DNA of 64,000 nt from Escherichia phage vB_EcoP_YF01: sequence record OQ025076.1; one strand, 5' to 3'. This document shows, piece by piece, positions 5,740 to 54,808 of the stretch (position 1 is the stretch's first letter; each line of letters begins with the position of its first letter). The notes under the pieces were generated by a model. That model had not been told where the DNA came from. It saw nothing but the letters and a program-made list of their open reading frames with translations, and did no database searches. A program made the translations under genes and the position numbers.

Positions 5740-6708
5740 ATGGGTGCAGGTGGTTTTCGTAAGAACACTGGTCGCAATAACACCACACTCCCGTACAACG
5801 TTGGGTTTCTCAATAATGTACAGGACACAGAAACATATAACGTAGCCGTATATGATGAGCTACAAAAAGTCAGTACAGCTACTAACCAAATGTTCCAAGC
5901 TATTGACGAGATTCACGATGAGATTGATGTTCGTATCAAAGCTCTTCATGCGATGAACTTACAATTCGATGAGCTTGAGAATAGAATTACTACAGAGATA
6001 GAGACAGCTATTGCCGATATCCAAACACAGATGGGGAACCTCTCCACTGAAGATATTTGGGATAATTCTGTTCAACCCCCTGTAAAATTAGAAAGCACTG
6101 TATCTGGCTTTAAAACAAGTATTGAGGGTAACACAACTAAGATTCAAACGGTAGAAGGTATTGTCAACGACCAAGGTCAAGAGATTGCTTTAGTTCAGAC
6201 AGAGATTCAAAATATTAACGGAAGCCTCTCTCAGTATATGAAGCTTTCTGAGTATGAAGCTACATGGGGAGTTAACTCTACAGTCAACGGAAGATATGCT
6301 GGGGTCAAGCTAACCAACAACGGAACAAACAGTCAATTCCAAGTAACAGCTAACAAGTTTATTGTTGGTGATGGTAGCTCTGGTAACACTCCTTTTGTGT
6401 TTGAGGGTGGAAGAGCTAGGATGGAGTTTGCTGATATAAAGAACGTCAATATCACAACAGCTCAGATTGCCAACGCTAGAATCCAATGGGCACAGATTGA
6501 TAACGTATCTATCTCCAATGCTCAGATTCAGAACTTATCAGCGGATAAAATTACTGCTGGTTCTATGTGGGGTTCTAACTGGAGACTTACCGTTGGGGGT
6601 GACTTTGTTATGGGTGGTACAGGTGGAGCACAATTGTGGATGAATGGAAACAGGATAGACTTCTATGATGGAAGTGGTGCTCTAAGAATTAGAATAGGGA
6701 GTTGGTAA
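5740..6708 (+). CDS. Tail fibre-like structural protein
   Basis: ATG at 5740 with GGAGG SD, downstream of terminator (track start 5674 lies inside the previous gene); N-terminal coiled-coil, C-terminal repeats NVNITTAQIANARIQWAQIDNVSISNAQIQNLSADKITAG. Confidence 0.5.
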   Translation: MGAGGFRKNTGRNNTTLPYNVGFLNNVQDTETYNVAVYDELQKVSTATNQMFQAIDEIHDEIDVRIKALHAMNLQFDELENRITTEIETAIADIQTQMGNLSTEDIWDNSVQPPVKLESTVSGFKTSIEGNTTKIQTVEGIVNDQGQEIALVQTEIQNINGSLSQYMKLSEYEATWGVNSTVNGRYAGVKLTNNGTNSQFQVTANKFIVGDGSSGNTPFVFEGGRARMEFADIKNVNITTAQIANARIQWAQIDNVSISNAQIQNLSADKITAGSMWGSNWRLTVGGDFVMGGTGGAQLWMNGNRIDFYDGSGALRIRIGSW

Positions 6709-6709
6709 T

Positions 6710-7741
6710 ATGGCATATGGAATATGGACGCAACCAGTAGGGCCGGGGCCAGCAACCCCCGCTCCCTTGTTTATTGATAGTGGAAGCACTTTCCCTCAGT
6801 TCAAGAATAGCATAAGAGGAAGTTTTAACTTTAATGGAGCTGGGAGATCTTTCCCTATTAGTGGATGGGATGGTAGTGGTCAGATAATTATTGTTCCCAC
6901 TGGTTCTCTGTGCTGGCAATGGGAAGTCCCTCCTAACTTAGTCCCTGATGTTTATTGTGTAAATAACATCTATGTAGAAAATGCCTCATCTTTTAGGGTT
7001 ACCCTGAACCAGAATCCTGGCAGTAACCCCCTGTTTGATTGTGGGTTCAACGTGTATCAAATTTGGCCTAGAGCTGATAGGAATTACGGAATCACTTTCT
7101 CAAATACAGCAGACTATTTTTCCATATCAGATGCTGGGGTTGTTGGTCAATGTATTTGGGCTTGGCAGGGGGTCATAAACAATGCCCTTCAGATACCAAA
7201 TATCGGTGGGTTCAATATGACCAATGCTGTTGTATTTGCTAATTGGTCTGATGGAGGGCTCGGACTGTCTTATACCTCTGATGACAGAGTTATTCGTGTC
7301 TACCAGAACAGACCTTACGTAAACGGCAACACTAATGAGGGTGGTTCAGTGTTTGCTAGAGTTGCAGTATTCTGCAATGGGGCAGGGGTTCCGGAACATA
7401 ATGGAGGTTTGAATATCTATTCTCCGGGTACCACTCAGTGTGTCTTCTCTACTAACAGAACACCTTTCACTGTGGATACTTTTATAGGCTCAGGGGGTGG
7501 TAACACGGGAATGGCATACCCTATGATACCTCTTACTTCTGGAATAGGTGCAATAAAAGGCCAAGGTAGTGGGTGGAGATACCAGCAAATGAGATCTCAC
7601 ACAATGAGTGGTTCTAGCATAGGAACTGGCTATGGAAGGTATCTATTTCAGTGGGATCAAAATTACGATCTAGGAGCTGGCACTGTAGTTAATTTATCAG
7701 TTCCTGTAATAAATGCAGCTAAGGTTTTTGCTGGACTATAA
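6710..7741 (+). CDS. Virion structural protein (Gly-rich, fibre/baseplate-like)
   Basis: Tightly coupled to upstream gene; Gly/Asn-rich beta-type composition. Confidence 0.45.
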   Translation: MAYGIWTQPVGPGPATPAPLFIDSGSTFPQFKNSIRGSFNFNGAGRSFPISGWDGSGQIIIVPTGSLCWQWEVPPNLVPDVYCVNNIYVENASSFRVTLNQNPGSNPLFDCGFNVYQIWPRADRNYGITFSNTADYFSISDAGVVGQCIWAWQGVINNALQIPNIGGFNMTNAVVFANWSDGGLGLSYTSDDRVIRVYQNRPYVNGNTNEGGSVFARVAVFCNGAGVPEHNGGLNIYSPGTTQCVFSTNRTPFTVDTFIGSGGGNTGMAYPMIPLTSGIGAIKGQGSGWRYQQMRSHTMSGSSIGTGYGRYLFQWDQNYDLGAGTVVNLSVPVINAAKVFAGL

Positions 7742-21091: not shown

Positions 21092-21092
<1 letters not shown>

Positions 21093-21352
21093 TATTCTAT
21101 TCCACGCTCTTTCAGAGCTTCTAACAATCCATTGTGATTAGCAGCACATTCTGTGTACTGGTCCTGATACCACTCCAACGTAGTGGCTAGTGCTTTTCCT
21201 TGAGCACTTTCTAAAAGAGGTAGGTCAACCCTACATTCAGCTTTTAGGTTTGTTGGTAAGGGCATTGATTGCCTGCTGTTGTCGCTCGTTGAACAAGCTG
21301 ACATACTCATCACTAGCGCAGACATTATAAAAAACTGGTTTAGTTTTCTCAT
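21092..21352 (-). CDS. Outer-membrane spanin (o-spanin, Rz1-like lipoprotein)
   Basis: Signal peptide MRKLNQFFIMSALVMSMSAC with lipobox-like MSAC, Pro-rich mature part; start taken at internal ATG 21352; overlaps the i-spanin gene in another frame. Confidence 0.5.
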
Positions 21353-21611
21353 AATGCATCTCTTTATAAACGGTTTCCGTGTTCTTCTTCCAGTTAGATA
21401 AACCGGTAAGAACTCTCTGAGCAACTTCATCAGCTGCTCTACTTCTTTCAATCTCTAACTCTTGCTGGTGCTTCTCTTTGTCCAGATTACTGCTGTCTGT
21501 TTGATATTCGTTAAACTTCATACCACCAAAGAATACAAGAGCTGAGAAAACGATAAACCCTAAGTTATCACTTAATGTGTTTTGCATGTTGTCTCCAACG
21601 AAAAAAGCCAC
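21237..21611 (-). CDS. Inner-membrane spanin (i-spanin, Rz-like)
   Basis: N-terminal TM segment GFIVFSALVFFGG followed by charged coiled-coil periplasmic domain. Confidence 0.5.
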   Translation of the reverse strand: MAFFVGDNMQNTLSDNLGFIVFSALVFFGGMKFNEYQTDSSNLDKEKHQQELEIERSRAADEVAQRVLTGLSNWKKNTETVYKEMHYEKTKPVFYNVCASDEYVSLFNERQQQAINALTNKPKS

Positions 21612-52554: not shown

Positions 52555-52803
52555 TCAATTATCGTAGCATGTATCCCAATACATGTAGTTAACGTACGTT
52601 CTCGGTTTGATTCCGTACATAATAAAGTGAGTCTTCTTAATTCTTTCCTTCAGTGTGTAATAAAGACCATCACTAAAGTTACCAATCTTTACTTGAAAAC
52701 GTAAAGAGCGAGCATCCATTCGAAGCATAGAGATTAGCTGTACTCTACTACCTCCAGCCATCTCTTCAAGAAGCTTCTTTGTATTCCAATAATGAGCTGC
52801 CAT
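52555..52803 (-). CDS. Hypothetical protein
   Basis: Track ORF 52555-52860; start trimmed to internal ATG abutting the upstream stop. Confidence 0.35.
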   Translation of the reverse strand: MAAHYWNTKKLLEEMAGGSRVQLISMLRMDARSLRFQVKIGNFSDGLYYTLKERIKKTHFIMYGIKPRTYVNYMYWDTCYDN

Positions 52804-52804
52804 A

Positions 52805-53104
52805 TTACCACTCCTTACCGGTTGTAATCGTAGAACCACCACACCATAAGGCTGTATCAATCACAACATTATCCGGTGTAGATTTCTCTTCGTTGATAGA
52901 AGGGTTAGCATTAGAGCAGGTTGCTCCGTTCCAGCGCATATCAATTTCACCAGAAGGAACCTTCTTACCTTTATGCCAGCGAGAAACACAAACACCTTCC
53001 ACTGCTACTGCACACCATCCATCAGGACGGCTCTGTACGCAGCCTGTAAGGGCTATGCAGACAAGGAAGATACAGATTAAGGATATTACACCACCCCAAC
53101 TCAT
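52805..53104 (-). CDS. Lipoprotein (candidate superinfection-exclusion/receptor-blocking protein)
   Basis: Signal peptide with lipobox LTGC (MSWGGVISLICIFLVCIALTGC); AGGAGG SD; Cys-rich mature domain. Confidence 0.5.
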   Translation of the reverse strand: MSWGGVISLICIFLVCIALTGCVQSRPDGWCAVAVEGVCVSRWHKGKKVPSGEIDMRWNGATCSNANPSINEEKSTPDNVVIDTALWCGGSTITTGKEW

Positions 53105-53250
53105 AATTACCTCCTATTAGATTTGGTGGACTATCTGGAATCGAACCAGAAGCTCACTAAGAAAGCAATTCCCACTGTTATAAAAGCACTCGCCTCAACA
53201 GGGATACACTAACTCTGGTGCCGCACCCATACTAGCCCTTGTTTAAAAAT

Positions 53251-53326
53251 TGGCCGGGACGGAAGGATTTGAACCCTCGTAAAGCGAGTTAGAAGCTCGC
53301 TGCCTTATCCACTAGACTACGCCCCG
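53251..53326 (-). tRNA. tRNA-Arg (anticodon UCU)
   Basis: 76 nt folded by hand: 7-bp acceptor stem (one G-U), D arm GUCU/AGGC, anticodon stem GCGAG/CUCGC with loop CUUCUAA (anticodon UCU), T arm GAGGG-UUCAAAU-CCUUC, discriminator G, encoded CCA. Confidence 0.85.
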
Positions 53327-53766
53327 ATAGATTTAAAACCGTTATACTTACCAGCGCAAGATCTGTTGCAAAAAGAATTTGCATACTTAACATTACGCTT
53401 TTCTTTTTCAGAAACTTTCCCACAGTAGGCACAAGTAATCATTACCATAGTCCTTCCTGTTGTTGATTCTGCTGTTGATTTCTTTCTGTGATCTTCTACA
53501 GACAATATCTGAAGGTTTGACAGTTCATCATTCGTTCTGTCCCTATCTACATGATCTACTTCCTCATCCTCGGTGAGATATCTTCCAATATGGCAAGACA
53601 TTAAATATCTAGAATAAGAAACTGTCGACCTGTCTTTATCAGAGTTGTAAAGATCTATAACCCTCCTCCCCTCTCTGTTTTGACGAAGATATCCCCACCT
53701 CCAGTCGTTACAGTAGGGGTAATCTAATTGCATTTTCAAAAAATCACCTCCTACTGCTCTATCCAT
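53317..53766 (-). CDS. HNH endonuclease
   Basis: Motif EVDHVDRDRTNDELSNLQILSVEDH; C-terminal CAYCG...CNRSC zinc ribbon; 3' end overlaps the tRNA 5' end by ~10 nt. Confidence 0.65.
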   Translation of the reverse strand: MDRAVGGDFLKMQLDYPYCNDWRWGYLRQNREGRRVIDLYNSDKDRSTVSYSRYLMSCHIGRYLTEDEEVDHVDRDRTNDELSNLQILSVEDHRKKSTAESTTGRTMVMITCAYCGKVSEKEKRNVKYANSFCNRSCAGKYNGFKSIGA

Positions 53767-54779: not shown

Positions 54780-54808
54780 ACAACAAAGGCCACCCAAAGG
54801 CAGCCTTT
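54780..54808 (-). terminator. Terminator-like hairpin (minus strand)
   Basis: GGCUGCC-UUUG-GGUGGCC hairpin followed by U-rich tract. Confidence 0.4.

Follow-up and report, generated by a model that had tools for sequence, protein, structure and literature searches.

What role a podovirus has for a small lipoprotein encoded far from its tail genes is the question raised by the 64,000 nt stretch of Escherichia phage vB_EcoP_YF01 [sequence record OQ025076.1] analysed here, referred to below as the window. The gene (52805-53104, minus strand) predicts a 99 aa product, and an initial annotation made from the sequence alone had proposed a receptor-masking superinfection exclusion (SE) lipoprotein, with Llp and Cor as examples. 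The product belongs to the family of Rtp45, the SE lipoprotein of siphophage Rtp, and the same genome includes a full-length homolog of the LptD-binding receptor-binding proteins (RBPs) Rtp44 and RBP_Oeko. The best explanation, to which we assign a probability of about 60%, is that the gene encodes a long-form Rtp45-family SE lipoprotein that blocks DUF6453-type RBPs at LptD. The proposed function is retained in this explanation by homology to Rtp45. However, the Llp and Cor examples match neither in sequence nor in fold, and although they hold as a functional analogy, the homologous target is LptD and not FhuA.

Family membership of the lipoprotein

The coding sequence, which predicts MSWGGVISLICIFLVCIALTGCVQSRPDGWCAVAVEGVCVSRWHKGKKVPSGEIDMRWNGATCSNANPSINEEKSTPDNVVIDTALWCGGSTITTGKEW, begins with ATG and ends with TAA at 52805-52807 (the stop is included in the coordinates). 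The strong Shine-Dalgarno (SD) sequence first described is AGGAGGT, read from the sequence at 53109-53115 on the minus strand, and its core (AGGAGG, 53110-53115) lies 5 nt before the ATG. A signal peptide of residues 1-21 (MSWGGVISLICIFLVCIALTG; 53042-53104, minus strand) is predicted to precede Cys22 (codon 53039-53041), as indicated by the lipobox, by the family census and by a helix over residues 3-20 in the AlphaFold2 (AF2) model described below. Residues 6-19 are hydrophobic and are followed by the lipobox already recognised in the initial annotation, L19-T20-G21-C22, which matches the core of PROSITE pattern PS51257. This core pattern was applied as a custom regular expression to the six frames of the window, where it matches 11 open reading frames (ORFs). 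The lipobox pattern by itself is therefore weak evidence, and the ORF is counted as real because of its conservation in a family. The residue at position +2 after the lipid-bearing Cys is Val and not Asp. Lipoproteins of E. coli with a residue other than Asp at +2 are sorted to the outer membrane, and by this rule outer-membrane sorting is predicted. The mature domain is Cys-rich, as had been claimed, with C31, C39, C63 and C88 in addition to Cys22. The ORF is a real gene with the features as first described.

The protein matches Pfam PF24052, 'Phage lipoprotein family', over profile positions 1-80 of 80 (E=5.4e-35; 119.7 bits, cut-off 27). It also matches phrog_4281 (E=8.9e-34), which includes Rtp45 itself (E=9.8e-33). 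The NCBIfam scan returned no match for the lipoprotein. In a phmmer search of all PDB sequences, the best match is Rtp45, chain D of 9RPS (E=6.8e-14), the cryo-electron microscopy (cryo-EM) structure of Shigella LptDE(M) with Rtp45 (Dunbar et al. PNAS 2025, PMC12685063). Designed armadillo-repeat proteins in the PDB also reached whole-sequence E-values down to 8e-7, but were rejected as spurious, as each repeat with its 'ALWxGG' motif contributes ~4 bits and no single stretch passes.

Alignment A1 includes the window protein, phiEco32 gp106, Bas91_0098, a Klebsiella Webervirus protein, Rtp45 and the SE protein of Oekolampad. Residues L9, G21, C22, R26, G29, C31, G37, C39, G46, P50, G52, D55, R57, G60, G90, E98 and W99 are invariant in A1, and G21, C22, G29, C31, C39, G46, G52, D55, G60 and G90 are invariant in the larger alignment A2 (36 sequences), with C31 and C39 present in 36/36. 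Both alignments define a conserved core of residues 26-60 (52925-53029, minus strand), which reads RPDGWC31-x7-C39 and then W..G.KVPSGEIDMR.xG. This core spans the equivalents of the Cys30-Cys38 pair of Rtp45 and of the strand whose partner in 9RPS is LptD beta6. A conserved C-terminal strand, GGSTITTGKEW (residues 89-99; 52808-52840, minus strand), is common to Rtp45 (GSVRDYGSKEWN) and the Oekolampad SE protein. The Cys pair and the motifs RPDGWC-x7-C, VPxGExDxR and GKEW are thus invariant or nearly so between Rtp45 and the window lipoprotein.

An AF2 model built on the 36-sequence alignment has a predicted local distance difference test score (pLDDT) of 80.7. It consists of the signal-peptide helix and strands at residues 31-35, 38-44, 47-50, 52-64 and 87-98, with pLDDT falling to 56-70 between the last two. 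The only credible match in a Foldseek search of the PDB is 9rps_D (E=1.9e-3, probability 1.00, target-normalised template modelling (TM) score 0.78, 35% identity); all remaining matches have E>2, the next being E=2.5. The region between the two long strands is the predicted tip of a hairpin, and alignment A2, the family census and the model agree on an insert there, residues 63-88 (52841-52918, minus strand), bounded by C63 and C88. These two residues are opposite each other across strands 52-64 and 87-98, and we infer from the model that they may form a second disulfide closing the tip loop.

The Rtp45 family is small and restricted to phages, with 385 phage records detected by tblastn and 82 clusters at 90% identity in a set of 5.8 billion proteins. 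At 50% identity there are 14 representatives, one of which is spurious (P0091, a 476 aa 'SGTLDLRWNS' repeat protein). Two size classes can be distinguished. Short forms (73-81 aa, 61 clusters) have two Cys beyond the lipid Cys and are found in Drexlerviridae, Dhillonvirus, Queuovirinae and Klebsiella Webervirus. Long forms (87-109 aa, 20 clusters) carry an insert of 15-35 residues at the hairpin tip of the model, which is nearly always flanked by a second Cys pair, giving four extra Cys in the census of long forms versus two in short forms. Kuraviruses carry long forms, as do more distant contigs with an SU10-type portal, in which the gene also lies among small early-type genes. Among Kuraviruses the core is nearly invariant, and the insert is the most variable part, with alleles of 93, 99 and 108 aa. 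The window protein, judged from its sequence, is a long-form, podoviral member of the Rtp45 family that is not linked to an RBP gene.

Receptor-binding protein homolog and tail needle

In Rtp and Oekolampad the SE gene is directly upstream of the RBP gene (rtp45-rtp44 and bas18_0026-0025) and next to the gene for the J-like tip protein, and the window was therefore searched for a relative of the RBP. Using Rtp44 and RBP_Oeko as tblastn queries, a single ORF at 6710-7741 on the plus strand was found, with matches over almost its whole length (E=1.6e-9 and 4e-11, respectively). The product (343 aa) corresponds to SU10 gp19 and phiEco32 gp21. It belongs to Pfam DUF6453 (PF20051; E=3.1e-23), as do Rtp44 (E=1.4e-113) and RBP_Oeko (E=2.1e-121), and to phrog_1265 (E=2.8e-107), the same PHROG as Rtp44. 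NCBIfam includes no match. The sole PDB sequence match is 9rpt_C (E=3.5e-9), which is RBP_Oeko bound to open LptDE. The AF2 model (pLDDT 84.3, predicted TM score 0.85) likewise has 9rpt_C as its only significant fold match in Foldseek (E=4.6e-13, target-normalised TM 0.82). A reciprocal search of 2.3 Gb of phage genomes with Rtp44 recovers Kuraviruses with E-values of 5e-11 to 3e-5.

In many records the gp19-type protein is automatically annotated as 'membrane protein; moron, auxiliary metabolic gene and host takeover'. The label 'membrane protein; moron' is that of phrog_1265, which explains the RefSeq and BASEL annotations. This label looks misleading, as the protein is a full-length homolog of Rtp44 and RBP_Oeko. 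Identity between gp19-type proteins ranges from 99% down to 45% among Kuraviruses that are otherwise 90-97% identical, and such mosaicism and hypervariability is the pattern typical of host-recognition proteins.

Directly upstream is the gene for the tail needle, SU10 gp18 (5740-6708, plus strand), which has a Phage_Tail_Tip domain (PF09327; E=4.5e-27) in its distal part. The same domain is C-terminal in the J-like fibre Rtp43 (E=7.4e-35), and the needle matches residues 905-1107 of Rtp43 by BLASTP (E=5e-6). The C-terminus of the J-like central fibre is the presumed docking place of the RBP in Rtp. In the gene order of the podovirus, a J-type tip thus directly precedes an LptD-type RBP homolog, with the Rtp45-type lipoprotein encoded elsewhere.

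Across the phage collection, the lipoprotein and DUF6453 genes occur in 385 and 431 records, respectively, and are distributed similarly over hosts (Escherichia 270/276, Klebsiella 53/64, Shigella 27/30, Campylobacter 7/7). A divergent contig of 100,570 bp with an SU10-type portal carries both, and both are present but unlinked in Klebsiella Weberviruses. The gp19-type gene is located between the needle and ejection-protein genes in every Kuravirus examined and in this 100-kb relative.

Proposed mechanism and rival explanations

In 9RPS, Rtp45 is located at the periplasmic interface of the outer membrane, between LptE and LptM; its residues 30-35 pair with LptD residues 318-323 and a disulfide links Cys30 and Cys38 (PMC12685063). 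The long hairpin runs up the lumen of LptD and shifts the extracellular loop EL4 outward by up to 20 Å (PMC12685063), which prevents RBP docking on LptD.

A mechanism in five steps can be proposed for the window lipoprotein on this basis. First, its position in a leftward early cluster suggests that it would be expressed soon after infection. Second, the sequence predicts export, lipidation at Cys22, cleavage by signal peptidase II and Lol sorting to the inner leaflet of the outer membrane. Third, by homology to the Rtp45-LptDE(M) complex, the core, presumably stapled by C31-C39, would dock between LptE and LptM at the periplasmic rim of LptD, with the long beta-hairpin extending up through the lumen of this lipopolysaccharide (LPS) translocon. 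Fourth, the hairpin, with its tip loop presumably closed by C63-C88, may displace or block EL4 or occlude the lumen, so that DUF6453-type RBPs could not insert. Fifth, genome content suggests that the RBPs concerned would include the phage's own homolog (6710-7741), carried behind the needle with its J-like tip. Sister virions would be excluded and progeny spared loss on LptD-bearing debris, and small siphophages that depend on LptD would be excluded as a by-product.

The lipoprotein alone would be a useful annotation, given that the mechanism of the family was solved in 2025. Together with the RBP homolog in one genome, it leads to the specific hypothesis that LptDE is the receptor. We tentatively propose, at somewhat less than even odds, that LptD(E) is the terminal receptor of Kuraviruses, bound by a gp19 adhesin docked on the J-like tip of the needle, and that the lipoprotein is the cognate exclusion factor. 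If so, Kuraviruses would have all three parts of the module by which small siphophages recognise their hosts (J-type tip, LptD-binding RBP and Rtp45-type lipoprotein), distributed over the late and early regions, the second receptor of the group would be named, and the contact made by the needle before nozzle formation would be explained. Cross-exclusion and cross-resistance between Kuraviruses and LptD-dependent siphophages would also be possible. LptD is essential and conserved, which bears on resistance evolution and on the design of cocktails that include therapeutic Kuraviruses. The long-form insert is in addition a natural variant with which to probe the reach of the hairpin into the LptD lumen that is needed for blocking. 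There is a precedent for a podovirus that uses both O-antigen and LptD, Pseudomonas phage DEV (PMC12892993). The literature searched yielded nothing relevant on a link between LptD and Kuraviruses, and a large receptor screen from 2026 does not mention Kuraviruses.

Several observations weigh against blocking of DUF6453-type RBPs at LptD as the role of this gene. The function is predicted from homology and genomic co-occurrence. A caution published with the Rtp45 structure is that AlphaFold predictions of the family and its complexes can be wrong, and AlphaFold3 failed on the Rtp45 complex (PMC12685063). The fold match is therefore best weighed alongside the sequence evidence. The only Kuravirus receptor named in published work is O-antigen, which is the primary receptor and essential, and for later steps the target is given generically as the cell surface, which the short fibres are supposed to bind (PMC11990801, PMC9509320). 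The lipoprotein gene is not adjacent to the RBP gene, as the two are 45 kb apart and on opposite strands (52805-53104, minus; 6710-7741, plus). Adjacency to the RBP gene is, however, a feature of the siphophage locus and not of the Rtp45 protein family. Alleles of the lipoprotein and gp19 do not covary among the few Kuraviruses for which both values were listed. Relative to the window proteins, KM01 shares 98% identity in the lipoprotein and 61% in gp19, and phiEco32 shares 74% and 96.5%, respectively. Absence of covariation is compatible with binding on opposite faces of LptD, but adds no positive support. SU10 gp19 is scored 'no/no' in the table of structural proteins in the SU10 cryo-EM study and goes unmentioned in its text, phiEco32 gp21 is annotated only as 'conserved hypothetical', and the 2014 paper on SU10 mentions neither the lipoprotein nor gp19. 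The presence of gp19 in the virion is therefore putative, though a needle-tip protein in 1-3 copies might escape mass spectrometry of gel bands. The insert at the hairpin tip could also change the target. Finally, the n-region of the signal peptide (MSWGGVI) has no Lys or Arg, and both are absent from the first 8 residues.

Some of these points would be expected if the lipoprotein served only to exclude competitors, binding LptD to shut out LptD-dependent siphophages in a Kuravirus that does not itself use LptD and whose DUF6453 protein does not act as an RBP on the virion. In favour of this, gp19 is missing from the structural proteins detected in SU10, the genes for the lipoprotein and gp19 are unlinked with no covariation of alleles, and LptD-dependent small siphophages, which share the hosts of the Kuravirus, are numerous among coliphages. 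This explanation is unlikely, however, because it does not account for the conservation of a full-length protein with the RBP_Oeko fold between the needle and ejection genes, or for the RBP-like hypervariability of the gp19-type protein. In addition, the SE lipoproteins discussed in the Rtp45 paper (T5 Llp with FhuA, and Rtp45 with LptD) each target the receptor of their own phage (PMC12685063).

The insert and the signal peptide raise the further possibility that the lipoprotein has been redirected to another envelope component, or is exported inefficiently because of its uncharged n-region. The insert (15-35 aa) is located at the functionally critical tip of the hairpin, and the first 8 residues are without Lys or Arg in all Kuravirus forms (~10 clusters), whereas every other family member has 1-3 of them. 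However, the segments with which Rtp45 contacts LptD (residues 30-35 and the disulfide core) correspond to the most conserved region, and the lipobox, the h-region and a non-Asp residue at +2 are strictly conserved across the ~10 Kuravirus clusters, which argues for selection on lipoprotein processing. The sequences thus point to an unusual yet conserved export signal, and we regard a changed target or poor export as improbable.

Binding of LptD could alternatively serve host takeover, by stopping the export of LPS and O-antigen or by weakening the outer membrane prior to lysis, with exclusion being incidental. The gene is in an early cluster described under 'host takeover' (PMC8948821), the hairpin of Rtp45 fills the LptD lumen and could obstruct the passage of LPS, and attempts to express the Oekolampad homolog in E. 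coli were unsuccessful (PMC12685063), which might reflect toxicity. On the other hand, Rtp45 and LptDE were co-overexpressed well in E. coli with LptM still bound, which argues against acute toxicity (PMC12685063), LPS already in the membrane would be expected to stay through the lytic cycle, and the tight co-occurrence with DUF6453 RBPs points to a role related to the receptor. We consider host takeover improbable.

A lysis function, as an o-spanin (Rz1-like) or other lysis lipoprotein, is effectively refuted. The protein is a small Cys-bearing outer-membrane lipoprotein, and GenBank labels one siphophage homolog (H59) as 'u-spanin'. However, an Rz/Rz1 pair with overlapping genes is present separately at 21092-21611, the lipoprotein gene is far from the holin and endolysin genes, which occupy a late plus-strand cluster on the Bas91 map, and it has neither the C-terminal transmembrane domain of a u-spanin nor an adjacent i-spanin, its neighbours being an 82 aa ORF and a tRNA-like element.

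Genome context and comparison with known exclusion systems

The 2 kb around the lipoprotein gene match 108 phage records at 86-96% identity, all of them phiEco32/SU10-like podoviruses (Kuravirus, Gordonclarkvirinae). Orthologs are annotated as 'putative phage lipoprotein' in phiEco32 (gp106) and 'putative lipoprotein' in SU10, and the ortholog in Bas91 is Bas91_0098. The gene is part of a block of small genes transcribed leftward, 45 kb from the tail genes. According to PMC8948821, the mapped middle promoters of phiEco32 precede genes 68, 58 and 40, and the cluster that holds gene 106 is reported as early. Gene 106 is upstream of all of these promoters, and from the gene order we infer that it belongs to the early class. 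A scan around the lipoprotein gene found 2 promoter-like sites versus 9.4 expected, none directly upstream. A strong hairpin resembling an intrinsic terminator (10 bp, followed by a T-rich tract) is located at 54785-54808 on the minus strand, ~1.7 kb upstream in the early leftward block, and may delimit an early transcription unit.

The initial annotation placed the gene next to a tRNA without stating the strand. This is tRNA-Arg(UCU) (53251-53326, minus strand), 146 nt upstream on the same strand as the lipoprotein gene and the only accepted match in an Rfam scan. In phiEco32 the gap is 23 nt versus 146 nt in the window, where it is filled by a tRNA-like element of 115 nt (53124-53238, minus strand). 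The adjacency of the gene to the tRNA is without evident functional meaning. The tRNA-like element has an acceptor stem with 6 of 7 bp (GGGCUAG/AUAGUCC), a canonical T arm (UCUGG-UUCGAUU-CCAGA), a discriminator A and an encoded CCA, yet its D/anticodon core is aberrant. It is found unannotated at 94-100% identity in 29 Kuravirus records, and is absent from phiEco32. Neither ARAGORN with default or introns-allowed settings nor Rfam made a call for this element. An assignment as tRNA-Asn(gtt) was not accepted, since it is obtained with ARAGORN only at the 80% threshold and would require a 22-nt intron, a 3-bp D stem and an unpaired variable region. The fold z-score is only -1.9, and the element may represent a degenerate tRNA or else a stable RNA released by processing. 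An Rfam match to cow-rumen-1 (E=0.17, 21.7 bits versus a gathering score of 53.4) was taken as chance.

At its 3′-end, an ORF predicting an HNH-type homing endonuclease of 149 aa (53317-53766, minus strand) shares 10 nt with the 5′-end of tRNA-Arg. A homing endonuclease is located at the same spot in Bas91, with a 60 aa ORF there instead in phiEco32, and the HNH ORF beside the tRNA looks like a mobile insertion. On the other side, the ORF for an 82 aa protein of phrog_13462 (52555-52803, minus strand) begins with an ATG 1 nt after the lipoprotein stop. Its SD, AAGGAG, is inside the codons for the final GKEW of the lipoprotein, to which it is apparently translationally coupled as judged from this arrangement. 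The product looks soluble, and has no match in Pfam or NCBIfam.

A two-component spanin pair is encoded at 21092-21611 on the minus strand. The Rz-like i-spanin (21237-21611) matches phrog_1152 'Rz-like spanin' (E=2.7e-37), and the gene for the o-spanin lipoprotein (21092-21352; MRKLNQFFIMSALVMSMSAC...) overlaps that of the i-spanin in another frame. In Bas91 the equivalent of the latter is annotated only as a 57 aa hypothetical protein. The phage phiEco32 is listed with its own two-component spanin pair (Kongari 2018). This pair is outside the exclusion system and fills the other possible role of a small lipoprotein, and its presence excludes a lysis role for the protein at 52805-53104.

Among known exclusion systems, the closest is Rtp45 [UniProt Q333D9], with which the window protein shares PF24052, phrog_4281, the lipobox, the disulfide motif, the VPxGExDxR strand and GKEW. 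The two are 47% identical in A1, and the predicted hairpin superposes on the experimental structure. However, Rtp45 is 76 aa in the Rtp genome annotation, and the window protein is 99 aa with an additional 26-residue tip segment that includes C63 and C88 and, unlike Rtp45, has no Lys or Arg in its n-region. The rtp45 gene is directly upstream of the RBP gene behind gpJ, whereas the window gene, in a podovirus, belongs to the early region and is separated from the RBP homolog by 45 kb. Binding to LptD has been demonstrated for Rtp45, and is predicted from homology for the window lipoprotein.

SE_Oeko (bas18_0026, Dhillonvirus Oekolampad) is a member of the same family (tblastn E=9e-6), and for phages carrying short forms of this type the receptor is experimentally LptD. 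The short-form members in Drexlerviridae, Dhillonvirus and Queuovirinae (73-81 aa, two extra Cys) differ from the window protein in being linked to the RBP, and their function is inferred for most. The best matches outside podoviruses are lipoproteins of Klebsiella Weberviruses, such as vB_KpnS_ZX2 [QTH79929] and Domnhall (93% of the query, 36.6% identity, E=5e-10). The match includes the C-terminal strand, though the Webervirus protein is a short form of 75 aa from a siphovirus with a Klebsiella host. As in the window, its gene is not adjacent to the DUF6453 gene, and the two are ~10 kb apart in TAH8.

Cor, a small envelope protein encoded by phi80, N15 and T1-like phages, blocks phages that depend on FhuA. 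Membership of the window protein in the Cor group was rejected, as no Cor family was found in the Pfam (E<=10) or PHROG (E<=1) scans and there was no match in the PDB search. Llp was rejected likewise, being absent from the PDB sequence matches at E<=10 and from 40 Foldseek PDB matches, with PF24052 as the sole Pfam match. T5 Llp, which is early-expressed according to the title of Decker 1994, nevertheless resembles the role proposed here in being an outer-membrane lipoprotein that acts on the periplasmic side of the receptor to block the RBP (PMC12685063). The target of Llp is FhuA and its action is by long-range allostery, whereas Rtp45 physically displaces a loop of LptD (PMC12685063).

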